From positions 1 through 30,824 of the forward strand of contig JBEDHF010000004.1 in assembly GCA_041174245.1 (NCBI GenBank): a stretch of DNA of 30,824 nt, written 5' to 3'. Under the pieces are notes generated by a model, which saw only the letters and a list, made by a program, of their open reading frames with translations, searched no databases and was not told where the DNA came from. This document shows, piece after piece, positions 4,138-22,547 of this stretch. Numbering within the stretch: position 1 is the first letter of the stretch; every line of letters begins with the position of its first letter. The stretch comes from Cyanobacteriota bacterium (GTDB lineage: Bacteria > Cyanobacteriota > Cyanobacteriia > PCC-6307 > Cyanobiaceae). Both the position numbers and the translations under genes were made by a program.

Positions 4138-6498
4138 TCAGACCTCGGTGAAGAAACCACTGCGGGCCAGGGCCTCCTCGGCCGGGCTGAAATGGGGCGG
4201 CTCAAGCGCCAGATCGGGGTTGTAGCGGTAGTTGTCGTGCAGGAAGCGGGAATGGAGCACGGCCTGCTCCACGGCGCTGATCGCCGCAGCGGCCCGCTCA
4301 CGGATCTGCGCCTGCTGCACCAGATCCTCCTGGTGCAAAGCGAGCTGCAGTTCATCGCGCAGGATCGAGAGATGCACCGCCGACTTGACGACGCCGTAGA
4401 TGCGCTGCACCCGGTCGCGACGGATCAAATCGATCGCCAGCGCATGGGCGCGCTCCAACTCGGAATCGAGGCCCGGCCAATAGCGCGTCGTGTAATAGGC
4501 GCTGTCGTCCTTGTGGAACCACTCCTCGCTGCGGGCAATCGACGACGACACCGTGTTGTGCAGCTTCCAGAGGAAGAGCCGCAGCGAGGCGCCGTCCTCG
4601 ATCACAGCCAGCTTGTCGGCCACGGTGACCTCGAGGGTGGGGGTGGCTTCTGTGGATCCGAGCAGCAGATACTCGATCGGATACATCGTCACCTCCCGGT
4701 TACGCACCACGTAACGGTTGAGATGGAAGCGGCAGTACGGGCAGGGATACATCGTGGCGAAGGCGGCGAAGAAGGCCTTGAACGCCTGGACCCCGCGCTG
4801 CTGCACTCCGGCGGGCTGGGCCGCCACCAGCTCGGCGCTGGTGTGCAGGAAGCGCCAGGTGGCCGGACCGATGTAGTAGGGGAAGCTGAGCCGCATCTCG
4901 CTGGCCGCGACGTCATCGCGGCCGAGATACACATCCAGGAAAGCGACGTATTGGCAGAGGAAGCCGGATTCACGGCCGAATTCCTGACGTTCGCGCCGCT
5001 TCTGAACACCGTTGAGGTAATGGCGGGTGAGCTCCCAGGCCCGCTTGATCTCCCGTTTGACCGTGAACGAACAGGCCGCGAAGCCATGCTTGACCGCCAG
5101 GCCATAGCGATCAAACTCGCCTTCGGCATCGGTGCGGGCGAACCAGGCATCGAGATCCGCCTCCGTGGTGCTCTCCCAGGCCCGTAGATCGTCAACGCTC
5201 AGCACACTGCAGGCCCGCAGCAGCAGCGGCATGAACTCCTCGTACCAGTAGGCCGTCGGCATGATCGAGCCCGCGAAGTGGCTGTCGCCGGCATCGACGA
5301 TCACCCGCTGCCAGGTCTCGAGATAGGGACGGCTGACGGCGCTGCTGGCACCGTCGCCGGCCCCAGACTCGGTGCTGCGGCTGAGTTCATGGTGGTCCTC
5401 CAGCAACCGCAGCCTGTTCAGCTCGAGATGGTGCAGATCCTCCAGGGTGATCGACTCAGGGCTGTGGCCAAGCAATCCGGCACTGAGCAGCAACTCCACC
5501 AGGGCGGCAAAGATCTGGTGGTGATGGTCGAGCGCTTCCAGCTCTTGCTCGAGCACCGCCTCGGCCTCCAGCATCGCCTCGGTGTGGGGGATCTGATCCC
5601 AGCGGGCCATGCGATCGCGCAGCTCCGCCTCGGCCCGGTTCACCGACGCCCGCAGCTCCTCGAAGGGGGCTTCGGCTCCAGCTTCAACAAGGCCCAGAGC
5701 CAGGTAGTAATCGAGGGCCGCATTCACAAAGCGGCAGAAATCAGGAATCGTGTAGGGAAGGTCGTAGGCGCGCAGGTGCGTTTCCGAGTTAGCGGAATAG
5801 CTTTCGCGGAAACTGCGGTAGGCCGCGCCCTGCAGCAACCGGAACAGGCCGATCTGCATCTGCAGCGGTGAAGTGCCCAGGCGCGGATCGTCGGCGACCT
5901 GAGGATCCGGTCGCAGGGGCGCCTGGCCGCCAGCCAGGGCAGCGTTCGCCGCAACCGTCGCCGTACCGGACGGGGCCGGAACGGCCTGGAAGGCGGTGCC
6001 GGGTTGGTTGGCGCGATAGGCGCGGGGATGGGGATCGAAGGTCTCCGGCAGGTAGGCCAGAAACTTCTGGGCGCTGATCGTTTCGCCACCGTCCTGATCC
6101 ACCTCCAGCACGATCGCCTTGGCGGTCTCGCTCGGAATCTCAAACAGGTCGAGCAGGCGCTCAAGGCTGGCCACGGAGATCGTGGTCTTGCCGGCGGCCA
6201 GCAGCCGGAAGGCCTCGCGGCCTCGCAGGGCCTGATCGCCGAGCAGCACCGTCAACAGCAGCCGCAGCTGCTCGTTGCTGAGGTTGGTGGTGGGCAGTCG
6301 GTAGCTGTGCAGAGCGGCCAGCAGCTCCGAGGCGGGAATGGTCAGCCCCTCCGTCGCCACGGCCTGCTGCAGGGCCACCACCAGCCGATCGCGGGCGGAA
6401 CTGGCGTCGGCCTCAGCCGCAGCCACCGGAGCCTGCCAGCGCTCGAGCAGGCGATCCAGCTGCTGGGAGGAAAGAGTGGCCACTGCAACACAGCGCAT
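4138..6498 (-). CDS. 786-aa protein: degenerate EF-hand pair, uncharacterised middle region and C-terminal Erv1/ALR-like FAD sulfhydryl-oxidase domain
   Basis: The segment REAFRLL...TISVASLERLL...IVLEVDQDGGETISAQKF follows calmodulin-lobe spacing. The C-terminal IGPATWRFLHT...YPCPYCRFH...FLWKLHNTVS matches the Erv/ALR signature (GxxxWxxLH, YPCxxC, WxxHNxV). Confidence 0.8.
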   Translation of the reverse strand: MRCVAVATLSSQQLDRLLERWQAPVAAAEADASSARDRLVVALQQAVATEGLTIPASELLAALHSYRLPTTNLSNEQLRLLLTVLLGDQALRGREAFRLLAAGKTTISVASLERLLDLFEIPSETAKAIVLEVDQDGGETISAQKFLAYLPETFDPHPRAYRANQPGTAFQAVPAPSGTATVAANAALAGGQAPLRPDPQVADDPRLGTSPLQMQIGLFRLLQGAAYRSFRESYSANSETHLRAYDLPYTIPDFCRFVNAALDYYLALGLVEAGAEAPFEELRASVNRAEAELRDRMARWDQIPHTEAMLEAEAVLEQELEALDHHHQIFAALVELLLSAGLLGHSPESITLEDLHHLELNRLRLLEDHHELSRSTESGAGDGASSAVSRPYLETWQRVIVDAGDSHFAGSIMPTAYWYEEFMPLLLRACSVLSVDDLRAWESTTEADLDAWFARTDAEGEFDRYGLAVKHGFAACSFTVKREIKRAWELTRHYLNGVQKRRERQEFGRESGFLCQYVAFLDVYLGRDDVAASEMRLSFPYYIGPATWRFLHTSAELVAAQPAGVQQRGVQAFKAFFAAFATMYPCPYCRFHLNRYVVRNREVTMYPIEYLLLGSTEATPTLEVTVADKLAVIEDGASLRLFLWKLHNTVSSSIARSEEWFHKDDSAYYTTRYWPGLDSELERAHALAIDLIRRDRVQRIYGVVKSAVHLSILRDELQLALHQEDLVQQAQIRERAAAAISAVEQAVLHSRFLHDNYRYNPDLALEPPHFSPAEEALARSGFFTEV

Positions 6499-7942: not shown

Positions 7943-8087
7943 GAACGCCAGCGTCCAGGCTGCTGCCCTGAAGGCCTTGATCGCTGCTTCAAAGCGCCGT
8001 AGATCGGCAGGGGAACAGCATCAGCCCTCGGCCACCGGAGCCAAGGGGGCGCAAAGCGGACTGAGCAAAAGCAGAACGGAAGAGCGA

Positions 8088-8537
8088 TCAAGGCATCGGC
8101 GTCGTTGCAAGCGATACTCGGCCACGAACAAGAATTGAACTGGGAATCACACTGGCGGAGGCACAAGCACGCATCGGCCAGAGCCTAAGACGCTCCTGGC
8201 GAGGGAGATAACTGATGCGATCCAGAGGACAGCGCCTGGAAAGGTCCTGCCGCAGGGCAACCTCACCCCGAAGACAGGTGTACGACGGTGATCGGTAAGG
8301 GGACGACGGCTGGCTGTGATCCACACAACGGCCAAGTTCCCGAACGACGATCGCAAGCTGAGGCATGCCAGGCCTGGTGTCATTGATCCAGCGCTGAAAC
8401 GACGAGGCCAGTGGATCAAAAGGCAGGGCATCAGCTGGCAAGGCCACTGCAACCGATGAGAGGGCAAGAACCAGCGGGGCGAATTGCCCCAGGGAGCTCG
8501 AACCATAAAGACAACGACGAAGCGGAGAGAACACCAT
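8088..8537 (-). CDS. Hypothetical secreted protein with four Cys in the mature part
   Basis: Signal-like LVLALSSVAVALPADA followed by LPFDP. Start chosen at ATG 8537; the track gives TTG 8546. Confidence 0.55.
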   Translation of the reverse strand: MVFSPLRRCLYGSSSLGQFAPLVLALSSVAVALPADALPFDPLASSFQRWINDTRPGMPQLAIVVRELGRCVDHSQPSSPYRSPSYTCLRGEVALRQDLSRRCPLDRISYLPRQERLRLWPMRACASASVIPSSILVRGRVSLATTPMP

Positions 8538-8619
8538 CACCAACAATCAAGAAACAACAGGAACGGAAGACACGAAGGCCAACCAGGCTGCACAAGGACA
8601 GCTGAGAAAAGCAAAAACA

Positions 8620-8985
8620 CTATGCCCAATGAAAAAGCACAATGACCTCAAAGGCGAGAACAGCGCACCAGGCCAAGATAGCAACAGCAACGGCAGCCGC
8701 TGCCATGTCCTTGATGCCGCCGATCACCTCAGAATGGCCAGACTCAATAACATCGCATAAGGATTCAATCACGGTATTGAAGATCTCGGCCATCAACACG
8801 AGAGCCGTGACCACCACCAAGAGGTCCACATGGATCCATTGGTGCTGCACCAGGGCGACGATGAGCAGTGGCACCGAAAGAGCAACCTTGTAAGCAACCG
8901 CAAAATCGGTGACAATCGCACGTTTCAGCCCTAGCAACGCCACCCTAGCCTTCAGGAATGGATCAAACCGCTTCGTCCTGATCAT
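8620..8985 (-). CDS. dgkA: Prokaryotic diacylglycerol kinase (DgkA family)
   Basis: LVLMAEIFNTVIESLCD...IGGIKDMAAAAVAVA is the E-xx-NT-xxE...KD-xxx-AV signature. Three TM helices. ATG 8985 gives 121 aa, the typical length. Confidence 0.88.
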   Translation of the reverse strand: MIRTKRFDPFLKARVALLGLKRAIVTDFAVAYKVALSVPLLIVALVQHQWIHVDLLVVVTALVLMAEIFNTVIESLCDVIESGHSEVIGGIKDMAAAAVAVAILAWCAVLAFEVIVLFHWA

Positions 8986-9814
8986 GGGCGAAACGATGGT
9001 AGAGAAAGTCGAGGGCCTGGTTACGAAGCTCGTAATAGCGAGGATCCTCCATGATGTCCTCACGATTACGAGGACGGGAAAAATCAACCTCGAGAATCTC
9101 ACCGATCGAAGCAGATGGACCATTGGTCATCATCACGATTCGATCGGCAAGAAACAGGGCTTCATCGATATCATGGGTGATCATCAGAACCGTACACTTC
9201 TGGGTATTCCAGATCTGCAGCAGCTCCTCCTGAAGCTCCTCTTTGGTGATCGCATCGAGAGCGCCAAAGGGTTCATCCAGAATCAGCACCTCCGGACGAA
9301 TCGCCAAAGCACGGGCGATGGCCACCCGCTGCTTCATGCCACCAGAGAGTTGGGTAATGAGCTTGTCAGCCGCTGCCGTGAGGCCAACAAGTTCCAGGTG
9401 CTCCATCGCGATCTCACGCTTCTCGCGCTCGCTCAACTGTGGCTTGACAGAATCAATAGCCAGGTGAACATTGTCATAAGCGGACAGCCAGGGGAGCAGG
9501 GCATAGCCCTGAAACACAACCATCCGATCGGGACCCGGCCTCAGAATCGGTTGGCCGTGAAGCAACACGTCACCCGATGTCGGCTTCGCGAAACCCGACA
9601 CCATATTCAGAAGCGTGCTCTTGCCACAACCGGAATGACCGATCACACAAATGAATTCTCCTGTTTGAACCTCAAGATTAATACCCTCAAGGACAGGATA
9701 CGGACCTGAGGGAGTCGCATAGGCCATCCCGAGTTGATTGAAACGCAATAACGGTTGAGATTCGGGAGCACGGTGAGTTTGATCGCCAGGAGCGTGGGTG
9801 GAAAGAAGATTCAT
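8963..9814 (-). CDS. cmpD: Bicarbonate ABC transporter BCT1 ATP-binding subunit CmpD
   Basis: GHSGCGKST, LSGGMKQRVAIARAL, LDEPFGALD and THDIDEA motifs. It is the last ABC gene of the cmp operon. Start moved to ATG 9814 (MNLLSTH). Confidence 0.88.
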   Translation of the reverse strand: MNLLSTHAPGDQTHRAPESQPLLRFNQLGMAYATPSGPYPVLEGINLEVQTGEFICVIGHSGCGKSTLLNMVSGFAKPTSGDVLLHGQPILRPGPDRMVVFQGYALLPWLSAYDNVHLAIDSVKPQLSEREKREIAMEHLELVGLTAAADKLITQLSGGMKQRVAIARALAIRPEVLILDEPFGALDAITKEELQEELLQIWNTQKCTVLMITHDIDEALFLADRIVMMTNGPSASIGEILEVDFSRPRNREDIMEDPRYYELRNQALDFLYHRFAHDQDEAV

Positions 9815-9927
9815 CGTTTCAGTGAGGGGAGTTGACAAGGGTGTGAGGTCATCAATAGGATGAAAAGGTCTGAGACAGACATCAGCAGCGGGCGCTCCAT
9901 CCAGAGAACACCGCCAGAGAACTGGCG

Positions 9928-11931
9928 TCAAGTGATGAGCGCTCGAGCCGGAGGCATGGCGATTTCGGCAATACTGAAATCCTGATGGATGGAGAGTTCA
10001 TTGAGGTAACGAATCGGATCGTCACTGTTAAAGGGTCGTCCATCAAACAGTTCAATAGGACCACGCTGATAGCTGATGTCCTCGAATCCGAGTTCGCGAA
10101 CTGCGGTGCTGAACACACTGACATTGCAGATCCGCTCAAGAATCTCGACGTAATTCCGAGGGAAGGGAATCTCAGCCCAACGGGCCAGCTGGGTCAGAAT
10201 CCAAAGGTGCTCAGAACGGCTGGGACGATTAATCCCGGGACCAAAGAACTGGTGATGGGGTAAAGCATGGGGATTCCCTTGCACTGCGCGCTCACTCCCA
10301 GATCCGGCCCCGAAGCTGATCATCTCCTTCTTCATGCCCAGATAGCGGCGATCAGAGAGGAGTTCAGCCATCTCCTCCCAATGGGAAGGATCAGCGCAGA
10401 ACTGACAGGCCTCAAGCAAAGCCTTGGTGAGAGCGATGTGGGTGTTCGGATAGGCCAGGGCCCAGTCTTCACGCACGCCGAGCACCTTGCCGGGATGGCC
10501 ATTCCAGATTTCCAGATCACCGACAATCGAAACACCATGGCCATCCAGGCTGGCGCGAAGATTCCAGGGTTCACCGATGCAGTAACCATCGATCGAACCG
10601 TCCTTGAGGTCGGCCAGCATCTGCGCCGGAGGGATGGTCTGCAGGTGAACATCCTTGTCCGGGTCGATACCACTTGCGGCCAGCCAGTAACGCAGGAGCA
10701 AGTTGTGCATCGACGCAGGATGGACGATGCCGAGGGTGTGAGGTTCGCGGTCATGGCTCTGAAGCCAACCGCGGTACTCCTCAATGGAGTGCACACCCTG
10801 ATCGGCCAACCGTCTGGCGAGGGTGACCTGATTGCCATTGCGACTGATCGTCAACGCTGAAACAATTGGCGTTGGATCACCGCCATGCCCGCCCGCCGTC
10901 ATCCAGGCGGGCATACCGGAGGGCATCAGCGCCGCATCGAGGGTGCCGTCGAGGAAGCCATCGGTGACCCCTCGCCAGCTGGTTTCACGCACGAGCTGCA
11001 CGGAATCCAGGCCATGGCGAGCAAACAGCCCTTTGGCTTCAGCGATGGCCAGCGGGGCACAGGCCGCCAGGGGAACGAAGCCAAGATCAAGGTTCACCTT
11101 TTCCAGACCATGACGAGCCAGCACCTTGTGGGGCTTGGCCTGCCATTGCTTCACCCGCTTCTGGCGGTTAAGGAAGTAGATGATCTCAGAACGAAGGCTG
11201 TAGTAGCTGGGGTGATGCACCACCTCCAGGCGCTGACGGGGCCGGGGAATATCGACCTCAAGAATGCCACCGATCCTGGAGCCGGGACCATTGGTGAGCA
11301 TCACGATGCGATCAGAGAGGAGCACAGCCTCATCAACATCGTGGGTGACCATCACGGCCGTGAGCTGATGCTCATTGCAGATCTGCATCAGCTTTTCCTG
11401 CAAATTGCCCCGGGTAAGGGCATCAAGCGCTCCAAACGGCTCATCGAGAAGGAGCAGTTTCGGCTTGATCGCCAGGGCACGGGCGATGGCGACGCGCTGC
11501 CGCATGCCTCCCGAGAGCTGCAAGGGCGGCTTATCGGCGGCATGGGCAAGACCGACCATGGCGATGTGCTCATCAACCACAGCGTCGCGCTCAACCCGGG
11601 AAAGATCAGGTAGGACTTCGTCCACAGCCAGACCAATGTTCTCGCGCACCGTCAGCCAAGGCAGCAGCGAGTAGTTCTGGAACACCACCATCTTGTCAGG
11701 ACCAGGGCGACGGATTGTTTCACCGTCCAACAGCACGGTGCCATCGCTGGGAAGGTCCAGTCCTGCCAACATGTTGAGCAAGGTGCTCTTGCCACAACCT
11801 GAGTGGCCAATCAGCGAAATGAATTCACCCTTGCGAATCTCAAGATCAATTCCCTTGAGAGCGAGGTAAGTGCCGCCTGTCGTCAGAGAAAATGTCTTGG
11901 CAACATCCTGAACAGCAACGAGGGAGGTCAT
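9928..11931 (-). CDS. cmpC: BCT1 ATP-binding/regulatory subunit CmpC (ABC domain plus C-terminal NrtA/CmpA-like domain)
   Basis: N-terminal ABC domain, then ARHGLEKVNLDLGFVPL...RETSWRG...HPASMHNLLLRYWLAA. 667 aa, closely resembling the S. elongatus CmpC sequence as recalled. Confidence 0.92.
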   Translation of the reverse strand: MTSLVAVQDVAKTFSLTTGGTYLALKGIDLEIRKGEFISLIGHSGCGKSTLLNMLAGLDLPSDGTVLLDGETIRRPGPDKMVVFQNYSLLPWLTVRENIGLAVDEVLPDLSRVERDAVVDEHIAMVGLAHAADKPPLQLSGGMRQRVAIARALAIKPKLLLLDEPFGALDALTRGNLQEKLMQICNEHQLTAVMVTHDVDEAVLLSDRIVMLTNGPGSRIGGILEVDIPRPRQRLEVVHHPSYYSLRSEIIYFLNRQKRVKQWQAKPHKVLARHGLEKVNLDLGFVPLAACAPLAIAEAKGLFARHGLDSVQLVRETSWRGVTDGFLDGTLDAALMPSGMPAWMTAGGHGGDPTPIVSALTISRNGNQVTLARRLADQGVHSIEEYRGWLQSHDREPHTLGIVHPASMHNLLLRYWLAASGIDPDKDVHLQTIPPAQMLADLKDGSIDGYCIGEPWNLRASLDGHGVSIVGDLEIWNGHPGKVLGVREDWALAYPNTHIALTKALLEACQFCADPSHWEEMAELLSDRRYLGMKKEMISFGAGSGSERAVQGNPHALPHHQFFGPGINRPSRSEHLWILTQLARWAEIPFPRNYVEILERICNVSVFSTAVRELGFEDISYQRGPIELFDGRPFNSDDPIRYLNELSIHQDFSIAEIAMPPARALIT

Positions 11932-11961
11932 CGAAGAAAAAAGCAGAGGAACAACACCGAG

Positions 11962-12132
11962 TCAAGAGGCGCGATTAGCCAGCCAGAAGAACAGGAACAT
12001 CGCCACCATGAACAAGTAACGACCGACAAGAAAACGAATCACATTGAGACGACGACTGAAGAATGCCTCGATGGAAGCACCGATCACCTGATAGATCGCC
12101 AAAACATTCCGCAAGGGGCCTTGAGCGATCAT
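11962..12132 (-). CDS. 56-aa hydrophobic ORF MIAQGPLRNVLAIYQVIGASIEAFFSRRLNVIRFLVGRYLFMVAMFLFFWLANRAS inside the cmp operon (not in the ORF track)
   Basis: Translated manually. The ATG begins 2 nt after the cmpB TGA, the stop is at 11962-11964, and the ORF fills the 203-nt cmpB-cmpC gap on the operon strand. Confidence 0.6.
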   Translation of the reverse strand: MIAQGPLRNVLAIYQVIGASIEAFFSRRLNVIRFLVGRYLFMVAMFLFFWLANRAS

Positions 12133-12134
12133 GA

Positions 12135-12995
12135 TCAACGTCCCGAAGCAATGCGGGCCTGCAGCCAGGTCATCAGTCGATCAAGAATCAGACCAATGGC
12201 ACCGATCCAGATCACACCAAGAACGATGTCCGAGACATAGCTGTTCTGGTAGGCATCCCAGATGAAGAAACCAATGCCGGGGGTGCCGGGCATCACGATT
12301 TCAGCCGCGATGATCGCCAGCCAGGCCAGGCCGATGGAGATGCGCAGGCCGGTAAAGATGTAAGGCAGAGCAGAAGGGATCAGAACTTTAGTGAAGAAGC
12401 GACGATTGGACATCTGCAACACCAATGCGACGTTCCGGTAGTCCTGGGGAATCTGGCGCACACCTTCTGCTGTATTGATCAGAATCGGCCAGATGGAGGT
12501 GATAAAGATCACAAAAATTGCAGCCGGTTGATTGTTCTGGAACAGCACCAGGGCAATCGGCACCCATGCCAGCGGAGCAACCATCCGCAGGAACTGGAAA
12601 AGAGGATCAAAAGCCCTGTTCAACCCTTTGTTCAGACCAACTGCAACGCCAACAGCGATGCCGACGACAGCAGCCAGGGAATAACCGAGGGCGACTCGAC
12701 TGAGACTGCTCATGGCGTGAAGGAACAGCCCCTTGTCAAGACCGCCGCGGTCAAAGAAGGGATAGAACAGCAGGTCGCGCGTGCGCTCTTCGGTGAACAA
12801 GCTCAGCGGACCAGCAAGTTTCGTCAGGCCAAGACTGGCGCTGAGCTGCCAGAAGAGCAGAAAACCAGCAATGCCCAGAATCGGGGGCACAATCGTTTTG
12901 CGAGAGTTTTTCCACCAAAGAGCCAGGCCGGTCGGAGCCAGGCGCTGGTCGGACTTGGCGCTTGAGTTCGTGCTTGGGATGGTGCTATTGGTCAT
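12135..12995 (-). CDS. cmpB: BCT1 permease CmpB
   Basis: NrtB/CmpB-type permease with PLAWVPIAL, IWPILINTAEGV and LPYIFTGLRI. The C-terminal IGFFIWDAYQ motif is CmpB-like. Confidence 0.9.
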   Translation of the reverse strand: MTNSTIPSTNSSAKSDQRLAPTGLALWWKNSRKTIVPPILGIAGFLLFWQLSASLGLTKLAGPLSLFTEERTRDLLFYPFFDRGGLDKGLFLHAMSSLSRVALGYSLAAVVGIAVGVAVGLNKGLNRAFDPLFQFLRMVAPLAWVPIALVLFQNNQPAAIFVIFITSIWPILINTAEGVRQIPQDYRNVALVLQMSNRRFFTKVLIPSALPYIFTGLRISIGLAWLAIIAAEIVMPGTPGIGFFIWDAYQNSYVSDIVLGVIWIGAIGLILDRLMTWLQARIASGR

Positions 12996-13108
12996 CAGTC
13001 AGAGTCCTGGAACGGAATGAAAAAGAAGGGATAAATCTTGAATTCAGACAGCCTTGACGATGGCTTGGCATGCCCGGCGCAGCCCTGAGTTGCTGTGGGC
13101 TCCTGCGA

Positions 13109-14449
13109 TCATTTCTTGATCGTCAGGGAATTGAGATAAGCCTGAGGATTTTCAGGGTCATAAACAACGCCGTCAAAGAAGATTTCCTTGCCTCGGCTGG
13201 AGCCGTTGGGAATCTCCTGGGCAGGCACACCAACCGCCTGGGCAGCCTGGCGCCAAAGGTCTTCGCGCACCGAGCGCTCATTGATCGCTTTCACCTGATC
13301 GATCGTGTCAACCGTGCCCGGGAAGAACTTCCAGCGGATGGATTCCAGCAGGAACCATTGCGTCAGGCTCTTGTAGGGGTAGGAAATGACACCGCGATCG
13401 CTGCTCCAATAGAGCGGAGCCATGGATGGATTGGTTTGAGGAGTGCCGGCGGCACCGATCTTGTACTGCCCTTTCAGGGCTTCCTGGAGCACCGGCAGAG
13501 GCACGTTGTACCACTTGCGGGAGCTGAGAATCCTGGCGGCTTTGTCCTTATTTTCGGGCTTGTCGAGCCAACGCTGGGCTTCAATCAGGCCCTTGAGCAA
13601 GGCAACGGTGGCCTTCGGATTCCGGTTCACCCAATCGGAACGAATGGCGAGGTATTCCTCAGGATGAACCTTCCAGATCTGGGCGGTGGTGGCCGCCAGA
13701 TAACCAACCTTGTCTGTGGCAATCCGCGATGGCCAGGGATCACCCGTGGAAAAGGCTTCCATCGTGCCATTCTTCATGCCCTGAAGGGTTTCAGGGGCAG
13801 GAACCTTGAGCAATTCCACCGCCTTGTCGGGATTCACCCCATTGGCGGCCAGCCAGTAGCGGATCCAGATCTCCTGGTTGGCCTTCGGGAAGGTGTAAGC
13901 GGCACGGAACCGGCGGCCCTCTTTCTTGTTGAAGGCGTCAAAGAATCCAGGCGAGCTCTGGCGGAGATTGAGGCTCAGATTGGCTGGTCGGACGCTGTTG
14001 GCAGCTGCGATGCCATTCCCCTGACTCATCAGCATCGCCAGAATCGACATCGGCACTTTCTTGCCATTCGTGATCGCACCCTCGCCGATCATCTGGGGCA
14101 TCGGCAGCTGCCACTGGCCGCCATCGATACCACCACCAGCAGAGCCGAGGACGACGTTGTCGCGCGCGGCTCCCCAGCTGGCCTGCTTGAACAGCTTCAC
14201 ATCCAGACCATGGCGGGCAAAAAAGCCTTGCTCAACCCCAATCACCAGGGGCGCCGCTTCCAGGATCGGAATGTATCCGAGGCTGATGGTGTTGGTTTCC
14301 AAGCTCGGATCAACAACCAGCGCCGTAGCCGAGCCAGAACCACTGCCATTGCCGCTGCGATCCGGTGGGTTGCCAAGACATCCGGCCAAGACAACGGAGA
14401 GCGCGAGTGCACTGCCGCAAAGGGATCGAAAACGTCGACGACGTGTCAT
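13109..14449 (-). CDS. cmpA: BCT1 bicarbonate-binding lipoprotein CmpA
   Basis: Lipobox LAGC. The motifs LGYIPILEAAP, GIDGGQWQLPMP, FSTGDPWP and HPEEYLA match CmpA rather than NrtA (GAHILTPMP, HPEK). Start set at ATG 14449; the track gives 14473. Confidence 0.92.
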   Translation of the reverse strand: MTRRRRFRSLCGSALALSVVLAGCLGNPPDRSGNGSGSGSATALVVDPSLETNTISLGYIPILEAAPLVIGVEQGFFARHGLDVKLFKQASWGAARDNVVLGSAGGGIDGGQWQLPMPQMIGEGAITNGKKVPMSILAMLMSQGNGIAAANSVRPANLSLNLRQSSPGFFDAFNKKEGRRFRAAYTFPKANQEIWIRYWLAANGVNPDKAVELLKVPAPETLQGMKNGTMEAFSTGDPWPSRIATDKVGYLAATTAQIWKVHPEEYLAIRSDWVNRNPKATVALLKGLIEAQRWLDKPENKDKAARILSSRKWYNVPLPVLQEALKGQYKIGAAGTPQTNPSMAPLYWSSDRGVISYPYKSLTQWFLLESIRWKFFPGTVDTIDQVKAINERSVREDLWRQAAQAVGVPAQEIPNGSSRGKEIFFDGVVYDPENPQAYLNSLTIKK

Positions 14450-15348
14450 CAGAAAACAATCGATTGGGAACAAAAAATGACATCAGGATCGAACCAGTCC
14501 AATGCAGCGAACAGCAGCACCCAAAGGCGGGCAGTGCAGCGGCCAGGGGCAGAACAAATCCCTGAAATGGAAGCAAAATTAGGATCAATCCAGATACCGA
14601 GGCGATCAAAAGCAACGGCCAGAGATGACCTCAGTCATGCGAGGAAGTCGTTGCAGAACAATCCGATCAAACCGCACCAGAGCGCGAGCCGATGGATTCA
14701 TTCAGCAACCTGAAGCCGCAACTTGATTCGGGCGATCATCAGCAGCAGCCATGATCCACCAGTCGAACCCATTCAATTCCAGGCATCCATCCCTACCAAC
14801 CGCATCAGCGGTAGGCCTGGTAAGACTTGAGGAACGCATGGATCAAGCCGCGATCCAAGCGGATAGCGAACGCCACAGCGAAGCTGTGGCGCCGCCTGGA
14901 ACATCAGCCAATGAGGCGACGGAGAGCGACAAAAGCCTATTCAGGTCTGCAATAACAGCTCTGAATCAATCCGGCATCGAAAGATGCCAAGGGAATGGAA
15001 GCCGGAACGGAACACCAGAACTCCGGCTTCCAATCAACTCCGCGGGAGTTCACCGCTGCCGCCACGGCTGTGGCGACGACGCTGACCTCTTCGGCAGCGC
15101 CGGGAGCCACATCGCTGCCGCTGAGCGCTTTGGTGGGTGGATGACATCGTTCAGGGACTGGCGAAGAACGAGTGATCGACTTGCGATGGAGAAAGAGTAA
15201 GGAGGATCGACAGATGTTGGGTCACGATCCACCGCAGGATCGGCAATCCAGTCGATAAGCACTCTTAATCATCAACAGGATTCAGCCACGACCCAAGGTG
15301 CAGACTCTGGTTCTATGGTCCACGCGCCAGGACACCCTGCTGCAGACG

Positions 15349-16249: not shown

Positions 16250-17635
16250 TCAGTCCGCAGGCTCGCCTGGTGTCGCTTCCCGCTGCTCAAGACCGACCTC
16301 AACGCCGAGGTGCTGGTTGGGATGGCCGATCAACAGCAGGGCGCCGCGTTCGCGGTTGGCGATGCCCCAGAGCCATTTGGTGAGCAGGATGACGCGGTTC
16401 TCCATCACCGGCATGAAGGCCAGGTGGGCCAGCCCCCAGAGCAGCCAGCCGAGGGTGCCGCTGACCCGCACCCCCCGCAGATCGGCGACCGCATGCAGCG
16501 GTCCGAGCACCGCCATCGAACCGAAATCGAAGAAGCGGAACGGTCGCCGTTCGCGCCCCTCGATCGCCGCCACGATGTCCTGGGCCACCCAGGTGCCCAT
16601 CTGCACCGCCGGCCCTGCCATCCCTGGCAGGGGCTTGCCATCGATCGTGTGGCTGTAGGCGCAGAGGTCGCCGACCACCCGGATCTCGGGGTGGCCTGGC
16701 AAGGAAAAATCAGCCTGCACGGGCAGCCGGCCACCGCGATCGGTGGCGATGCCAAGGCGATCAGCCAGGAGTTTGCCGAGGTGTGAGGCGCGCACCCCGG
16801 CCGTCCAGGCGATCGTGGCCGCCTGCACCACCTCGCTGCCAGCGGCGGTGCCGACGGTGACCGCCCCCTCCTCGATCTGCTGAACGCGTCCACCCAGCAG
16901 CAGGCGAATGCCCACCGATTGCAGATAGGTCCCTGCCGCTGCCGAGAGGCTCGGATGCATCGCCCGCAGCACCCGATCGCCGGGATCGATCAGGGTGACG
17001 CTGGTATCGGCTGGATCGAGCTGCTTGAAATCGCGGTCGATGGCGTGCTGAATCAGCTCCATCGTCGAACCGGCCAGCTCGCAACCGGCCGGGCCGGCGC
17101 CAACGATCGCCACCGATTGCAGGAAGCGGCGCCGCTGCCGATCAGGGGTCTGCTCCGCCTCTTCCAGGGCCATCAAGACGCGCCGACGCAGTTCATCGGC
17201 GTGCTCGAGGATCTTCATCGGCGGCGCCAGCGACCGCCACTCTTCATGGCCGAAATAGGTGCTGCCCGAGCCGGTGGCCAGGATCAGATGGTCGTAGGCG
17301 TAGCGGCAGTGGTTGAAATGAATCTCCCGCGCCTCCACATCGATGTCATCCACCTCACCGAGCAACACCTGCACATTCGGGGCCTGACCGACCAGCTGCC
17401 GCAGCGGCCGGGCCACATCGCTTTCAGCCACCAGGCCCGTGGCCACCTGATACAGCAGGGGCTGGAAGAGATTGAAATTGCGCTTGTCGATCAGGGTCAC
17501 CCGCACGGGCTTGTTGATCAGGGCATGACACGCCTTGATGCCAGCGAAGCCACCCCCAACAATCACCACATGGGGAGCCTGACGGAGGCGCGCTTCCGGA
17601 GGCTCAAGCTCAAGGAAAAAGCGTTCTCTGGTCAT
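16250..17635 (-). CDS. ndh: Type II NADH:quinone oxidoreductase (NDH-2, Ndb family)
   Basis: Two Rossmann motifs (VVIVGGGFAG; AIVGAGPAGCELAG), FQPLLYQVATG, YDHLILATGS and WTAGV. Confidence 0.9.
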   Translation of the reverse strand: MTRERFFLELEPPEARLRQAPHVVIVGGGFAGIKACHALINKPVRVTLIDKRNFNLFQPLLYQVATGLVAESDVARPLRQLVGQAPNVQVLLGEVDDIDVEAREIHFNHCRYAYDHLILATGSGSTYFGHEEWRSLAPPMKILEHADELRRRVLMALEEAEQTPDRQRRRFLQSVAIVGAGPAGCELAGSTMELIQHAIDRDFKQLDPADTSVTLIDPGDRVLRAMHPSLSAAAGTYLQSVGIRLLLGGRVQQIEEGAVTVGTAAGSEVVQAATIAWTAGVRASHLGKLLADRLGIATDRGGRLPVQADFSLPGHPEIRVVGDLCAYSHTIDGKPLPGMAGPAVQMGTWVAQDIVAAIEGRERRPFRFFDFGSMAVLGPLHAVADLRGVRVSGTLGWLLWGLAHLAFMPVMENRVILLTKWLWGIANRERGALLLIGHPNQHLGVEVGLEQREATPGEPAD

Positions 17636-17835: not shown

Positions 17836-18585
17836 TCATTGCCCCAGGTAGGAGCGCTGCAGCTCACGGTTCTGGCGCAAATCGGCGGCCGCACCCTCCA
17901 GGGTGAGACGGCCCGCCTCCAGCACATAGGCCCGGTCGGCCACCGCCAGGGCCGCCGCCGCGTTCTGCTCCACCAGCAGGATCGTCAGGCCTTCAGCATG
18001 GAGGGCCGCCAGGGTGGCCATCAGCTCCTGCACCAGCTTCGGCGCCAGACCAAGGCTTGGTTCATCGAGCATCAGCAGGGTGGGGCGGGCCATCAGCGAA
18101 CGGGCAATGGCCAGCATCTGCTGTTCGCCGCCGGAGAGGGCACCAGCCAGCTGATGGCGCCGCTCCGCCAGCCGCGGGAACAGGCCATAACAACGCTCCA
18201 GATCCTGGGCCACGGCCTGCTGATCCCGTCGTAACCAGGCCCCCAGGGCCAGGTTGTCGGCAACGCTCTGGCTGGCCAGCACCCGTCGGCCCTCCGGACA
18301 GTGGCTGATGCCCAGCCGCACGGTGCGCTCCGTGCTGAGCTGATCGATCCGCGCCCCCCGCCAGAGGATCTGACCGGCCGTCAGAGGCACCAGGCAGGAG
18401 ATGGCGCGCAGGGTGGTGGATTTTCCGGCCCCATTCGAGCCGAGCAGGGCCACCAGTTCCCCTTGCTGAATCTCAAGATCCAGCTGATCGAGGGCGCGCA
18501 CACTGCCGTAGCGCACACCCATGGCCTCGAGCCGGAGCAAGGGGGCCGCCGCCCTGGGGACGCTGGCCGGAGGGTGCTGCATCAC
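17836..18585 (-). CDS. livF: Branched-chain/neutral amino-acid ABC transporter ATPase LivF
   Basis: GSNGAGKST, CPEGRRV, LSGGEQQMLAIAR, LDEPSLGLAP and VEQN motifs. Confidence 0.92.
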   Translation of the reverse strand: MMQHPPASVPRAAAPLLRLEAMGVRYGSVRALDQLDLEIQQGELVALLGSNGAGKSTTLRAISCLVPLTAGQILWRGARIDQLSTERTVRLGISHCPEGRRVLASQSVADNLALGAWLRRDQQAVAQDLERCYGLFPRLAERRHQLAGALSGGEQQMLAIARSLMARPTLLMLDEPSLGLAPKLVQELMATLAALHAEGLTILLVEQNAAAALAVADRAYVLEAGRLTLEGAAADLRQNRELQRSYLGQ

Positions 18586-19337
18586 TGACCGCCCCCCAGA
18601 TAGGCGGCGATCACCCGCGGATCGGTGCGCACCTGCTCGGGCGTGCCCAGGGCAATCAGGGCCCCGAAATCAAGCACGGCCAGACGATCGCAGAGGCCCA
18701 TCAACAGCGGCACATGGTGCTCGATGATCATCACCGTGAGCTGATGGCGCTGGCGCAGTTCAGCGATCAGCTGGCCCAGGCGCTCCTTCTCGCTGGGGTT
18801 GAGGCCGGCCGCCGGTTCATCGAGCAGCAGCAGCGTTGGCCGGGTCGCCAGGGCGCGGGCGATCTCCAGCCGGCGGCGATCGCCGTAGGCGAGGGTGCCG
18901 GCATCCCGCTCCGCCAGGCCGCTGAGGGCGAGCTCCTCAAGCAGGCCCCAGGCGGTGGCCAGGGCCTCGGGCTGCGAACGCCGCTGGGACGCCTGGGCCA
19001 CCAGCAGGTTCTCCAGCACGGTGAGGCGATCGAAGAGGCGCAGGTTCTGGAAGGTGCGCGCCAGACCGAGACGATTGAGGCGATCAGGCGGTAACGCGCT
19101 GATCGTCTGGCCCTGCCAGCACACGTCGCCGGAGCTGATCGGTGTGACGCCGGAGATCAGGTTGAACAGGGTGGTCTTGCCGGCGCCATTCGGTCCGATC
19201 AGCCCGAAGATCTCGCCAGGATGCACGGCGAAGCTGACCCGATCGAGGGCCTGGAGGCCGCCGAATCGGCAGCTGAGCCGATCGAGGCTGAGCAGCGGCA
19301 GCGACGACGAACTCATGGCTTCCCCCCTGTTGACCAA
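18582..19337 (-). CDS. livG: Branched-chain/neutral amino-acid ABC transporter ATPase LivG
   Basis: FGGLQAL, GPNGAGKTT, ARTFQN, LEIARAL, LDEPAAG and the C-terminal VIAAYLG. Overlaps livF by 4 nt. Confidence 0.92.
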   Translation of the reverse strand: MVNRGEAMSSSSLPLLSLDRLSCRFGGLQALDRVSFAVHPGEIFGLIGPNGAGKTTLFNLISGVTPISSGDVCWQGQTISALPPDRLNRLGLARTFQNLRLFDRLTVLENLLVAQASQRRSQPEALATAWGLLEELALSGLAERDAGTLAYGDRRRLEIARALATRPTLLLLDEPAAGLNPSEKERLGQLIAELRQRHQLTVMIIEHHVPLLMGLCDRLAVLDFGALIALGTPEQVRTDPRVIAAYLGGGQ

Positions 19338-20233
19338 CGCCAGCGGCCGATCCGCTCCAGCAGGGCCGGGGTGATCAGGCCCTGGGGCACCAGCAACGGA
19401 CCGAGCAGGATCACCAGGCCGAACAGCACCAGCCGGGCATCGCCCACCGGCCGCAGCAGTTCGGGCAGAGCCGTGAGCAGCAAGCCCCCGAACACCGGAC
19501 CGAGCCAGGTGCGGGAGCCGCCGAGGATCACAAAGGCCAGGGTGGTGACGCTGGCATCAAAACTTCCCTGGCGGGCATTCCAGGTGTTGAAGACATGGGC
19601 GGCCAGGGCGCCGGTGCTGCCGGCGAGCACAGCACTGAGCACAAAGGCGGTCAGCTTGACGCGGAGGGTGTGGATGCCGAGGCAACGGGCCGCCAGCTCG
19701 TCATCACGGATCGCGGCCATCGCCAGCCCGAGCGGCCGGGTTTCCAGATGCTGAAGGCCCCAGCCGGCAAGCAGCAGCAGGCCAAGGGCAGGCAGCAGGT
19801 AGCCCGAGGCCGTGGCGAACACCTGGGGAATACCGAAGATGCCGACAGCACCGCCGGTGAAGGGCAGGTTGAGGATCGCCACCCGCACGATCTCAACCAG
19901 GGCGATCGTGGCGATCGCCAAATAGATGCCCCGCAGCCGCAGCACCGGGCGACCAAGCGCCAGGGCCAGGCCGCCGCAGAGCAGACCGGCCAGCAGCATC
20001 TCCAGCAGCAACGCATGCAGCGGAAACGCGGCCGCATCAGCGCCGTTGAGGCCCGTGCCGGCCCCGACCAGCTGCGGGAAGCGGGTGGAGACCAGGGCCG
20101 CCAGGGTGCCACCGATGGCATAAAACGCTGGTGTGGCCAGGGACAGCTGCCCGGCCGCCAGGGGCAGATACACGGAAAGACCCAGCAGGGCTCCAAGCAG
20201 CATCTGCACCAGCAGGGCGTGGTCGATCATCAC
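19313..20233 (-). CDS. livM: Amino-acid ABC permease LivM
   Basis: GQLSL, LRLRGIYLAIAT, AIRDDELAA, VILGG and GPVFG motifs; multi-TM. Confidence 0.9.
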   Translation of the reverse strand: MMIDHALLVQMLLGALLGLSVYLPLAAGQLSLATPAFYAIGGTLAALVSTRFPQLVGAGTGLNGADAAAFPLHALLLEMLLAGLLCGGLALALGRPVLRLRGIYLAIATIALVEIVRVAILNLPFTGGAVGIFGIPQVFATASGYLLPALGLLLLAGWGLQHLETRPLGLAMAAIRDDELAARCLGIHTLRVKLTAFVLSAVLAGSTGALAAHVFNTWNARQGSFDASVTTLAFVILGGSRTWLGPVFGGLLLTALPELLRPVGDARLVLFGLVILLGPLLVPQGLITPALLERIGRWRWSTGGKP

Positions 20234-20262
20234 GGCATCGGCTCCAGGCCACGGCTGAGCAT

Positions 20263-21198
20263 TCAGACCTTCTCCACGGCACGGCGGCCGAGCAGGCCAT
20301 CGGGGCGCAGCAACAGCACCACAAACAGAATCGCAAAGGCGACGGCATCGCGCCAGCCGGAGAGGGCACTGGGCACGAAGGCCTCGACCAGGCCCATCAG
20401 CAGCCCACCGGCGATCGCCCCCGGCACGCTGCCAAGCCCACCGAGCACCAGCACCGCCAGGCCCTTGAGCCCGAAGGCCATGCCGAAATAAGGACCAGCC
20501 AGACTGACGCTGACGCCGATCAGGCCCCCGCCCAGACCGGCGAGCACACCGCTGATCCAGAAGGCCAGCCGCACCATCCGATCGCTGTTGATGCCGAGCA
20601 GGCGAGCGGTGGTGGCATCTTCCGCCACGGCCCTCAGGGCGCGGCCGCTGCGGCTGTGGTCCAGCCAGAGGGTCAGCGCCAGCACCGCCAGGGCGCAGAC
20701 CAGGAGCAGCAGCAGCTGCAGGGTGCGGATGCGGGCGGCACCGATGGCGAGCGAGACCGGCAACGAGGCCAGAGCCGAGGCCGGGAAGGCATAGCCCTCA
20801 GCGCCCATCAGGATCTGGAGCAGATTGACCAGAACCACACCGGCCCCAAGGCTGGTGATCAACGACAGCAGCGGTTCGGCCTGGCGGCGACGCAGCGGCG
20901 CGAAGGCGATCCGTTCCACCACGAGCGCCACCAGCCCCGAGAGCACGGCCGCCAGGGGCAACGCCAGCCAGAACGGCATCGCCACGGGCAGCATCCCCCC
21001 GGGCAGGGCGCCATTGACACCGATTCGACCGCCCATCAACAGATAGGTGAGGTAACCGCCCAGAGAGAAGAGGGCTCCCTGGGCGAAGTTGATCACCCCC
21101 AGCACCGAGAAAATGAGCGTGTAGCCGAGGGCCACAAGCGCGTAGACACCACCGCTGGCGATGCCATTGAGCAGGCTCTGCAGCAAAGCGTCGCTCAT
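20263..21198 (-). CDS. livH: Amino-acid ABC permease LivH
   Basis: NGIASGGVYALVALGYTLIF...INFAQG, GRALRAVAED and VLGGLGSVPGA motifs. Confidence 0.92.
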   Translation of the reverse strand: MSDALLQSLLNGIASGGVYALVALGYTLIFSVLGVINFAQGALFSLGGYLTYLLMGGRIGVNGALPGGMLPVAMPFWLALPLAAVLSGLVALVVERIAFAPLRRRQAEPLLSLITSLGAGVVLVNLLQILMGAEGYAFPASALASLPVSLAIGAARIRTLQLLLLLVCALAVLALTLWLDHSRSGRALRAVAEDATTARLLGINSDRMVRLAFWISGVLAGLGGGLIGVSVSLAGPYFGMAFGLKGLAVLVLGGLGSVPGAIAGGLLMGLVEAFVPSALSGWRDAVAFAILFVVLLLRPDGLLGRRAVEKV

Positions 21199-22547
21199 GG
21201 CCGCCTCCGATCCGGTGCTGGGCTCGGATCAAGGTCAATGTCCCGCACCAGGGTGAAGCGGCCGCGACGGCCATCGGCCTGCATCTGCACCTGAGCCACA
21301 TAAAAACGCCCTTGCACCACTTCTCCGTCGGCACGGAAACGGATCGGTCCGAGCGGGGTGTCGTAGCGGCCGGCCAGCAGCTCGTCATTGAGGAGGCGGC
21401 GGGCCTGGGCCAGGGTGCGCTGGTGAAAACCGTTCCGCCGCTGCAAGCGCTCGATCGCCTCAGCCAGCACCTGGTAAGCCGTCCACGCCTGGGCCGTGAT
21501 CTGCGAGGGCGCCTGGTCCGGGTGGCCCTGGTGATACAACCGCACAAAGGCCTGATTGATCGGACTGGCCAGCTCAGGGCTGTAGGCCTGGGCAATCAGA
21601 ATGCCGTCGCAATAGCGCTGGCAGATCGGATAGATGTTGGGCGTGTTCAGGCCATTGCCCACCACGATCTGGCCGCGATAGCCAAGCTCCCGCAGCTGAC
21701 GGATCAGGTTGCCCCCATCCACGGCCTGGGCGGAGATCACCACCAGATCGGGGCGCTGCTGCAGGGCCGCCGTGATCGGGGTCTGGAAATCGTTATCGGC
21801 GAGCTGGGTGCGCTGAATCGACACCGGCGCCAGGCCACGGGCGCTCAGGGCCTGCTGAAAAATGGCAGTTTCAGCGGTGCTGTAGGCATCGTCCTGGGCA
21901 TAGAAGACAGCGACGCGCCGGATCGAGGGATCACGGCGCAGCGCTTCCGCCACCGACAACGGCGCAATCACCGAGCTCTGGGCCGAGACCCGGCTGATGA
22001 AGCGTCCGATCTGGGGAATGCCCTTGGCGGTATTGGAGGGAGCGACCACAGGCACACCGCGGCGCTGGGCGATCGGATCGGCGGCGAAAGCCTGCTGGGA
22101 GAGGGTGGGGCCGATCAGGGCGATGGCGCCACGGTTGATCTGCAGATTGAAGGCAGCCATCGCTGAAGCCTCATCGCTGGCCCCGTCCTCGAGCCGCAAG
22201 ACGGCAGGGCGCCCGCAGGGGGTGGCGGCAGCCTGGCCCTGGAACCAGCGCCGTGCCAACGCAAGGCCGAGTCGTTGATCCTGGCCATAGAGATTGGCGT
22301 TGCCCGTCAGGGCGATCACAGCCCCGATCGTCAGGGGCTGATCGGGGTGGAGCGTCGCCGAGGCGGGATCATTGCGCTGACCGAGCAACACCAGCCCACC
22401 GAGGCCAGCCGCCAGCACCGCCGCCAGGCGCAGGGCTCCACGCCGTCGTTGCTCCAGGCGCTCCAGTCGCTCCAGTCGCTCTAGGCGCTCCAGGTTTTGC
22501 GCGGGTTGCAGGGTCAACTGGGCAGCAGTGGAATCCAGCGACGGCAC
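21195..22547 (-). CDS. livK: Periplasmic amino-acid-binding protein (LivJ/K, PBP1 fold); exact start uncertain
   Basis: TM anchor, then IGAVIALTGNANLYG, IGPTLS, IPQIG and DLVVISA motifs. First gene of the liv operon. Confidence 0.85.
   Translation of the reverse strand: MPSLDSTAAQLTLQPAQNLERLERLERLERLEQRRRGALRLAAVLAAGLGGLVLLGQRNDPASATLHPDQPLTIGAVIALTGNANLYGQDQRLGLALARRWFQGQAAATPCGRPAVLRLEDGASDEASAMAAFNLQINRGAIALIGPTLSQQAFAADPIAQRRGVPVVAPSNTAKGIPQIGRFISRVSAQSSVIAPLSVAEALRRDPSIRRVAVFYAQDDAYSTAETAIFQQALSARGLAPVSIQRTQLADNDFQTPITAALQQRPDLVVISAQAVDGGNLIRQLRELGYRGQIVVGNGLNTPNIYPICQRYCDGILIAQAYSPELASPINQAFVRLYHQGHPDQAPSQITAQAWTAYQVLAEAIERLQRRNGFHQRTLAQARRLLNDELLAGRYDTPLGPIRFRADGEVVQGRFYVAQVQMQADGRRGRFTLVRDIDLDPSPAPDRRRP
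22451..22494. repeat. 9-nt tandem repeat x5 (gctccagtc-like) encoding LERLERLERLERLEQ
   Basis: gctccaggc gctccagtc gctccagtc gctctaggc gctccagg, seen directly. Confidence 0.9.

Follow-up and report, generated by a model that had tools for sequence, protein, structure and literature searches.

An Erv/ALR-type gene in a picocyanobacterial contig

The DNA analysed here, called the window throughout, is a stretch of 30,824 nucleotides (contig JBEDHF010000004.1 of assembly GCA_041174245.1) from a cyanobacterium of the family Cyanobiaceae. On its minus strand, positions 4138-6498 are occupied by one uninterrupted reading frame that starts at the first ATG, ends with a stop codon and encodes a protein of 786 amino acids. 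This protein, hereafter the window protein, joins an N-terminal calmodulin-like domain to a core of the Erv/ALR family of sulfhydryl oxidases by way of a linker and a helical middle module (Table 1). The gene is real, since a word-based search returned 333 homologues, the top one at 97% identity, and the ratio of nonsynonymous to synonymous substitution rates (dN/dS) for the whole gene is 0.13 against its nearest relative, L002 (80% amino-acid identity), indicating purifying selection. The same two observations ruled out a spurious open reading frame (ORF) in GC-rich DNA. The frame is unbroken in all 80 homologous loci retrieved. The source genome is a metagenome-assembled genome (MAG) of 1.23 Mb, 54% complete, in which a profile search identified a single PF04777 gene (33.1 bits).

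The Erv/ALR core is recognised by the Pfam profile Evr1_Alr (PF04777), which matches residues 546-658 over profile positions 2-82 of 93 with 37.5 bits, above the gathering cut-off of 27.6 (E 3.1e-9). A preliminary description of this sequence had called for such a scan; no NCBIfam model matches the protein. A phmmer search of PDB sequences placed yeast Erv1, AtErv1, ALR and Erv2 at the top (E 4e-4 to 1e-2), with helices 1-3 aligning to those of yeast Erv1 and AtErv1. The three hallmarks listed in the preliminary description were recovered, in order, by translation: IGPATWRFLHT (4840-4872), CPYC (4732-4743) and FLWKLHNTVS (4546-4575). They hold the W-x3-H of helix 1, the CxxC of helix 3 and the HN of helix 4, which we take to be the defining motifs of flavin binding and catalysis in Erv enzymes. 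Across 29 members that reach down to 31% identity and include eukaryotic proteins, five residues (W548, H552, C586, H647 and N648) never vary, while at least 90% of the sequences retain C589; the second cysteine is lost in one distant homologue only (P0143). Thus, the conservation expected of an Erv enzyme at these positions held. Specific to the subfamily are a conserved insert of about 40 residues between helices 3 and 4 (YPxEYLLLG...) and a long conserved stretch beyond the HN motif. The C-terminal tail carries the motif EEAxARSGxFTE, in which R779 is invariant. Between the window protein and L002, dN/dS is 0.04 in the Erv core and 0.10 in the tail (691-786); these and all other per-segment values come from one sequence pair with dS near saturation and are approximate.

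C586 and C589 are the only conserved cysteines in a close set of 121 sequences, where they are found in every member; C515 is present in 80 of these and C476 in 60. No second conserved cysteine pair, of the kind that forms the shuttle disulfide of Erv1, ALR and Erv2, was found in this set, in agreement with the preliminary description, which had noticed no second shuttle CxxC. The same description had seen neither a signal peptide nor a transmembrane segment, and the closer look bears this out. The N-terminus, judged by eye without a predictor, shows no signal peptide or twin-arginine character. No hydrophobic stretch exceeds 1.53 on the Kyte-Doolittle scale (19-residue windows); the maximum lies at residue 329, within a modelled globular helix. 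A transmembrane reading of residues 329-347 was dropped because this segment belongs to a confidently modelled soluble helix and stays below the usual threshold. To judge from the absence of export signals, the Erv-type protein is probably soluble and cytoplasmic.

A calmodulin-like domain with decayed calcium sites

By profile comparison, the N-terminus of the protein is homologous to four-EF-hand calmodulin: a profile of the family's N-terminal region matches full-length calmodulin at E values of 1e-27 to 7e-37. Orthologues match the EF-hand families PF13499, PF13405 and PF00036, and an orthologue from Nostoc (P0124) contains four Pfam EF-hands. In many orthologues from marine Synechococcus the third loop is canonical (DQDGDGWIELAD). 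In the AlphaFold2 (AF2) model of the window protein, residues 88-153 superpose on EF-hand pairs with Z scores of 6-7.5 and root-mean-square deviations (rmsd) of 1.7-2.8 Å in an exhaustive structural search (VIA); one example is 3mse_B, with an rmsd of 1.7 Å over 66 residues. The calmodulin-lobe-like N-terminus of the preliminary description was therefore right, both as homology to calmodulin and as modelled fold, and the EF-like pair that it placed at about 6060-6220 falls within 6034-6240 (residues 87-155).

The claim that this is a regulatory EF-hand-like module fared less well. An EF-hand loop was taken to comprise 12 residues, those at positions 1, 3, 5 and 12 being acidic or polar ligands and that at position 6 glycine. 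The best of the four loops of the window protein, loop 4 (DQDGGETISAQK, 6064-6099), has G at position 5, E at position 6 and K at the bidentate position 12. Loop 3 (AAGK-TTISVAS) has suffered a one-residue deletion and lacks acidic ligands, and loops 1 and 2 are unrecognisable. Neither the window protein nor its closest relatives (P0003-P0009) contain a loop with a full ligand set. The Pfam scan for EF-hands proposed at the outset gave no match in the window protein at E≤1, and centrin and caltractin match it at E 0.18-0.4 only (phmmer, PDB sequences). The N-lobe has a dN/dS of 0.60 and the C-lobe one of 0.30, as compared with 0.04 in the Erv core. Judged by this comparison, the calmodulin-like domain is under relaxed constraint in the lineage of the window protein. 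Thus, with all four loops devoid of calcium ligands and dN/dS at 0.3-0.6, calcium control appears doubtful for the window protein, while sequence leaves it plausible for the family.

The middle module and the structure model

The EF-like and Erv modules are separated by about 385 residues (156-540) that match no Pfam family. The preliminary description had listed this part as about 400 residues of unassigned helical sequence. Its length and the lack of a Pfam match stand, but residues 206-540 form a conserved module specific to the family, and residues ~208-255 within it are the most conserved motif of the entire protein. No match to residues 206-540 was found in Pfam, PDB sequences or the ESM atlas: the middle-module profile recovered only coiled-coil-like noise from PDB sequences (E≥0.017), and a feature search of the ESM atlas with residues 200-540, PF04777 clusters excluded, gave no usable match.

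The full-length AF2 model is a confident one, with a mean predicted local distance difference test score (pLDDT) of 79.4 and a predicted template-modelling score (pTM) of 0.77. When it was compared by VIA with 48,161 PDB chains and the top 50 matches were considered, the three best were all QSOX proteins: rat QSOX (Z 11.2), the psi-Erv/Erv fragment of human QSOX1 (Z 11.2) and Trypanosoma brucei QSOX (Z 9.5). The human fragment (3lli_A) aligned over 232 of its 251 residues, spanning residues 204 to 766 of the model. The baculovirus oxidase P33 was recovered at Z 6.5. The alignment suggests that a first helical bundle (~210-433) packs on the Erv core where QSOX has its psi-Erv domain; a QSOX-like pseudo-dimer would be a reasonable, though unproven, reading of this arrangement. 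Many of the EF-hand matches to the whole model run from residues 87-154 on to about 325-344, and include calmodulin-peptide sensors, the CDPK regulatory apparatus, calcineurin and calredoxin (EF-hand/thioredoxin). Since these EF-type alignments span residues 87 to ~342, helix 307-345 is modelled with its hydrophobic end in the groove of the EF pair, in the manner of a calmodulin target.

Table 1. Features of the Erv-type gene (window coordinates) and MscS-type channel genes near its homologues (locus coordinates).
Feature	Coordinates	Strand	Basis
Whole gene: calmodulin-like domain, linker, middle module, Erv core, helical tail	4138..6498	-	786 codons plus stop
Decayed N-lobe, residues 9-86, at the EF1/EF2 positions of the Nostoc orthologue P0124	6241..6474	-	alignment, profile, dN/dS 0.60
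C-lobe, EF-hand-pair fold, residues 87-155	6034..6240	-	structure match, loops, dN/dS 0.30
Linker, poorly conserved, predicted disordered, residues 156-205	5884..6033	-	pLDDT 33-40, alignment gaps, dN/dS 0.53
Family-specific helical middle module, residues 206-540	4879..5883	-	conservation, dN/dS 0.045-0.07
Long helix, residues 307-345; hydrophobic end ~325-345	5464..5580	-	EF-type structure matches, hydrophobicity maximum at 329; model-based
Erv/ALR core, residues 541-690	4429..4878	-	PF04777, alignment, dN/dS 0.04
W548-x3-H552, helix-1 flavin-contact motif	4843..4857	-	invariant in 29 divergent members; aligned to yeast Erv1
C586-P-Y-C589, predicted redox-active CxxC	4732..4743	-	conservation in homologues
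H647-N648 of the WKLHN motif, helix 4	4555..4560	-	invariant in divergent members
Two long antiparallel helices and conserved C-terminal tail, residues 691-786	4141..4428	-	conservation, model, dN/dS 0.10
MscS-type genes in other loci	L082:4689-5885, L084:8617-10197, L041:4077-5699, L045, L019, L038, L034, L037, L007, L024, L049, L054		

Distribution and phylogeny of the family

Bacterial disulfide formation is, by the textbook, extracytoplasmic, and Erv enzymes are eukaryotic or viral. The preliminary description, which noted that Erv1/ALR/QSOX enzymes are characteristic of eukaryotes and large DNA viruses, had suggested that the protein could belong to an undescribed redox-signalling or disulfide-relay system. 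This was overstated. Relatives are present in 259 of 185,579 species genomes (one genome per species) and in eukaryotes too, and the NCBI and UniProt pipelines label members as 'ERV1/ALR-related protein' or 'thiol oxidase'. The occurrence of PF04777 in cyanobacteria and other bacteria has been mentioned in passing (PMC10598087). A search of full-text literature found no functional or structural study of the calmodulin-like/Erv architecture. We regard the protein as a real, unstudied variant of a known enzyme family, with an activity predicted from its kinship.

The family is small, since an exhaustive HMMER search of 1.84 billion representatives returned just 222 clusters. Many homologues come from marine and freshwater picocyanobacteria. 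Cyanobacterial carriers comprise Synechococcus, Cyanobium, some Prochlorococcus, Nostocales, Microcoleus and Scytonema, and full-length relatives at 43-45% identity include Nostoc proteins (P0124). Members are also found in the alphaproteobacterial isolates Rhizobium sp. FKL33, Pararhizobium antarcticum, Salipiger aestuarii and Jannaschia formosa. Among eukaryotes, Chlorokybus atmophyticus has a full-length protein (P0129), and shorter forms without the N-terminal domain occur, for instance in the choanoflagellate Didymoeca costata (P0138); the AlphaFold-DB cluster representative R1F7L0 (616 residues) aligns to residues 205-786. Three groups can thus be told apart: the full-length relatives at 43-45% identity, the full-length Chlorokybus protein and the shorter eukaryotic forms. 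No relative was found on IMG/VR viral contigs searched with family patterns. Within the GTDB family of the window the gene is patchy (16 of 200 other genomes, 5 of 64 genera), being universal among the sampled members of some genera.

A quickly built maximum-likelihood tree of 93 sequences, midpoint-rooted and with long branches, pairs the window protein with L002 and then joins the two to marine Synechococcus (support 96). Freshwater Rhodobacterales and Rhizobiaceae contribute a clade that is nested within the picocyanobacteria beside Cyanobium (support 97). This nesting of alphaproteobacterial among picocyanobacterial sequences indicates that the gene has been transferred between the two groups. 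The Chlorokybus protein branches as sister to the bacterial sequences as a whole, and the short eukaryotic forms lie outside. The full-length alphaproteobacterial members are L023, L028, L029, L031, L032, L033 and L036 (also L039, L042 and L057). Some MAGs of Cyanobium and Synechococcaceae (L044, L051, L055, L058, L059) hold instead a second type of the gene, which groups with the copies of filamentous cyanobacteria and not with the picocyanobacterial clade. Three MAGs titled Klebsiella sp., Pimelobacter simplex and Pseudanabaena sp. (L008, L026, L027) contain copies near-identical to those of Cyanobium and Synechococcus UW140 MAGs; these titles probably reflect mis-binning or mislabelling rather than true hosts.

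Genomic neighbourhood

On its upstream side (window coordinates) the Erv gene has as neighbours ispG, ctpA, a DUF6737 gene and a gene for a universal stress protein, which is convergent with the Erv gene. The opposite side is occupied by a divergent gene for a VanX-like M15 dipeptidase and by a DUF305 gene. Only the nearest relatives share these neighbours (the universal stress protein gene in L002 and L012, the VanX-like gene in L002 and L016). All-against-all clustering of the ORFs of 81 loci identified no conserved operon partner beyond close relatives, and the Pfam neighbourhoods of Synechococcus KORDI-100, Nostoc sp. B(2019), one 4.9-Mb genome and two freshwater picocyanobacteria all differ. 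The Erv gene looks monocistronic and without a dedicated partner nearby.

The only neighbour to recur is a gene for an MscS-type channel, which lies near the Erv gene (adjoining or within 3 kb) in 12 of 80 species loci, in at least five arrangements. It adjoins the Erv gene upstream in a marine Synechococcus clade and downstream in Nostoc MG11 and B(2019), lies upstream in Nostocales HT-58-2 and 1.5-3 kb away in Prochlorococcus, and occurs twice in Microcoleus N3A4. With 2-9 MscS genes per genome, roughly 1-2.5% of loci would be expected to have one within 6 kb. The association in these other lineages is loose but probably non-random. The window itself has no MscS gene, and a search of the whole window with Rfam returned nothing.

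Elsewhere in the window, a block of lower G+C content (8000-15300; 0.54-0.58, as compared with 0.65-0.70 on either side) looks like a horizontally acquired nutrient-uptake island. It holds a diacylglycerol-kinase-like gene (8620-9123, minus strand) and genes of a nitrate/cyanate-type ATP-binding cassette (ABC) transporter, all on the minus strand: an ATPase (8963-9931), a fusion of an ATPase with an NMT1_2 binding domain (9928-11931) and a permease (12135-12995). Two ORFs overlap there on opposite strands, 13070-14713 (plus, 547 residues) and 13109-14473 (minus, 454 residues). The plus-strand ORF has no Pfam match; its minus-strand counterpart may encode the substrate-binding protein of the nitrate/cyanate-type transporter. 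A gene for a pyridine-nucleotide-disulfide oxidoreductase (16250-17635, minus strand) lies about 10 kb from the Erv gene, and positions 17836-22547 (minus strand) hold a five-gene operon for a urea/branched-chain-type ABC transporter, consisting of two ATPases, two permeases and a Peripla_BP_6 binding protein. In other genomes, neither the oxidoreductase gene nor the urea-type transporter genes showed a link to the Erv gene.

Interpretation and alternatives

The gene product is, in our view, probably a soluble, cytoplasmic protein from a distinct subfamily of the Erv/ALR sulfhydryl oxidases linked to flavin adenine dinucleotide (FAD), equipped with a buttressing helical module and a calmodulin-like domain. 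The Erv core (541-690) would hold FAD against W548, H552 and H647-N648. Two electrons would pass from a substrate dithiol to the C586-P-Y-C589 disulfide, then to the flavin, and finally to O2, yielding H2O2, or to another acceptor; the use of O2, the release of H2O2 and the nature of the substrate are suggested by analogy with the Erv family. Since there is no shuttle cysteine pair, the active-site CxxC would meet its substrate, a partner protein or a small thiol, directly, and the strongly conserved family-specific surfaces are candidate sites of substrate recognition. The module formed by residues 206-540 would buttress the Erv core, its first bundle taking the psi-Erv position, possibly in a QSOX-like pseudo-dimer instead of an Erv homodimer. 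The four-EF-hand calmodulin-like domain would occupy the place of the thioredoxin domains of QSOX, with the C-lobe modelled as a lid or clamp on the internal hydrophobic helix (~325-345). Calcium could gate the oxidase in those orthologues, from Nostoc and many marine Synechococcus, whose loops are intact. In the window lineage, because the ligands are gone, the domain would more likely be a calcium-independent structural or autoinhibitory remnant and the enzyme constitutive.

Several observations weigh against this reading. In a reducing cytoplasm rich in thioredoxin, a thiol oxidase that reduces O2 would come at a high cost unless it were tightly gated, and calcium, as the obvious gate, looks broken here. 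The placement in the cytoplasm draws solely on missing signals, and searches of the literature found no biochemical data for any family member. As regards the predicted Erv bundle, the leading QSOX matches (Z 11.2) and P33 speak for it, whereas Foldseek found no Erv match for the whole model in the PDB and only weak calmodulin-like ones (best E 0.33). Single-domain Erv structures are absent from the top 50 of the whole-model VIA search. The psi-Erv assignment comes from one whole-model alignment, and a Z score under about 13 can reflect a common helical arrangement. Folded alone (pLDDT 82.5), the middle module retrieved generic or designed four-helix bundles at Z≤6.9, with no QSOX or Erv structure in the top 50, and Foldseek against the PDB returned nothing for it (E≥3). 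An hhalign comparison of the middle module with the Erv core gave a probability of 0.3%, so that no internal duplication was detected.

Among the alternatives, a switch by which the EF-hand module, on binding calcium, would free or activate the Erv core of the window protein itself seems unlikely to us. Such a switch could be read from the homology of the N-terminal domain to calmodulin, the canonical loops of orthologues (DQDGDGWIELAD in marine Synechococcus, four Pfam EF-hands in Nostoc), the C-lobe modelled on an internal helix in the style of a calmodulin target and the constraint still partly acting on this lobe (dN/dS 0.30). However, no full ligand set remains in the window protein or in P0003-P0009, with lysine at position 12, glycine at position 5 and a deletion in one loop, no Pfam EF-hand is found at E≤1, and the dN/dS of the N-lobe is 0.60. 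The electrons might also bypass O2: a disulfide relay that delivers them to a cytochrome, a quinone or a protein, oxidising one dedicated partner with little H2O2, is a possibility to be kept in mind, though not the outcome we expect. Erv1 and ALR prefer cytochrome c in vivo, the shuttle pair is missing, and the large conserved surfaces particular to the family (208-255, 480-540 and the C-terminal tail) suggest a specific partner; yet no partner gene is conserved alongside, neighbourhoods vary by lineage, and the data do not discriminate among acceptors.

The invariance of catalytic and flavin-contact residues over very wide divergence, a dN/dS of 0.04 in the Erv core, frames intact in 80 of 80 loci and a second cysteine lost only in P0143 all make it very improbable that the protein is a catalytically dead structural or sensor pseudo-enzyme with an Erv-like fold, or the product of a horizontally acquired gene in decay. 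What recommended this view was the patchy occurrence of the gene among Cyanobiaceae (16 of 200 genomes, 5 of 64 genera), the decayed N-terminal domain and the horizontal transfer indicated by the alphaproteobacterial nesting. Least probable of all, in our estimate, is an exported catalyst, acting in the periplasm or thylakoid lumen to complement systems of the DsbA or VKOR type. Disulfides are normally formed outside the cytoplasm in bacteria. A statement in PMC10598087 loosely has the Erv family acting on 'periplasmic-bacterial proteins'. Against export, neither the window protein nor its homologues show a signal peptide, a twin-arginine motif or a transmembrane segment, and the N-terminus consists of the variable calmodulin-like domain.

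The interest of the finding lies with the family as a whole and is somewhat smaller for the calcium-blind window member itself. A conserved, strongly constrained protein of Erv-oxidase type without export signal occurs in lineages of the picocyanobacteria, which abound worldwide (Synechococcus, Cyanobium, some Prochlorococcus), as well as in Nostocales and certain alphaproteobacteria. Should it prove active, oxygenic phototrophs, with a metabolism run by thiol switches, would have in it a dedicated enzymatic source of disulfides or H2O2 in the cytoplasm. Orthologues with intact loops would tie calcium signalling to redox chemistry in bacteria, and the window protein, with its decayed calcium sites, offers a natural control. 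A QSOX-like two-bundle core, should it exist, bears on the origin of QSOX-type enzymes. The present analysis contributes the decay of calcium sites in this lineage, with selection relaxed there, as well as the structural match to QSOX and the nesting of alphaproteobacterial sequences.

A more far-reaching and rather doubtful proposal is that the family is a counterpart of QSOX in bacteria, algae and protists: a psi-Erv/Erv pseudo-dimer driven, in place of a thioredoxin shuttle, by a calmodulin-like domain clamped on an internal helix, which would serve as a signal-gated generator of cytoplasmic disulfides or H2O2, with the window lineage as its 'calcium-blind' variant. Such a gated oxidase could re-oxidise thioredoxin-controlled enzymes after the calcium transients of light-dark or osmotic shifts. 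Gating by such shifts would fit the recurrence of MscS neighbours in several lineages.

Comparison with known systems

The window protein shares with Erv1, ALR (GFER) and Erv2 (PF04777; PDB 4e0h, 2hj3, 1oqc, 1jr8) a Pfam domain above cut-off, the W-x3-H motif, a CxxC at the start of helix 3, the HN of helix 4 and, as predicted here, a helical-bundle core. It differs from them in being bacterial and much longer (786 residues, theirs having about 110-200), in lacking both the N- or C-terminal shuttle CxxC/CxC and the CX16C structural disulfide, and in adding the insert of ~40 residues, the middle module, the calmodulin-like N-terminus and the helical tail. Unlike these enzymes, it is probably not a simple homodimer. 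A shuttle disulfide is not universal among Erv enzymes, the small viral ones being without it.

QSOX (PDB 3lli, 4p2l, 3qd9) provides the best structural match of the whole predicted model. Both are single chains with an N-terminal accessory module attached through a flexible linker and, as modelled for the window protein, a second helical bundle on the Erv domain. The window protein, however, has no thioredoxin domains (no thioredoxin-family Pfam match at E≤1), hence no redox-active shuttle, and neither a signal peptide nor a secretory route. Sequence similarity to QSOX is confined to the Erv core, and the middle module is three times the size of psi-Erv.

Vaccinia E10R, pB119L of African swine fever virus and baculovirus P33/Ac92 (5xki) are likewise Erv-type proteins, and the viral enzymes act in the reducing cytoplasm. 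E10R and pB119L have the active-site CxxC only and rely on partner proteins. P33 is, like the window protein, a multi-domain Erv protein, and aligns to the model at Z 6.5 over 201 residues. By comparison with these viral oxidases, the window protein has no viral context, other accessory domains and no evident genes for partners equivalent to A2.5L or G4L.

As to the N-terminal half, the regulatory apparatus of plant CDPK (2aao) and Chlamydomonas calredoxin (5e37) also combine four EF-hands with a catalytic or redox domain in a single chain, and the C-lobe of the window protein is modelled as gripping an internal helix as theirs do. In the window protein, in contrast, the calcium ligands have been lost and the partner domain is an Erv oxidase rather than a kinase or a thioredoxin. 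Calredoxin (Z 6.9) nonetheless provides a precedent for an EF-hand module tied to thiol-redox chemistry.

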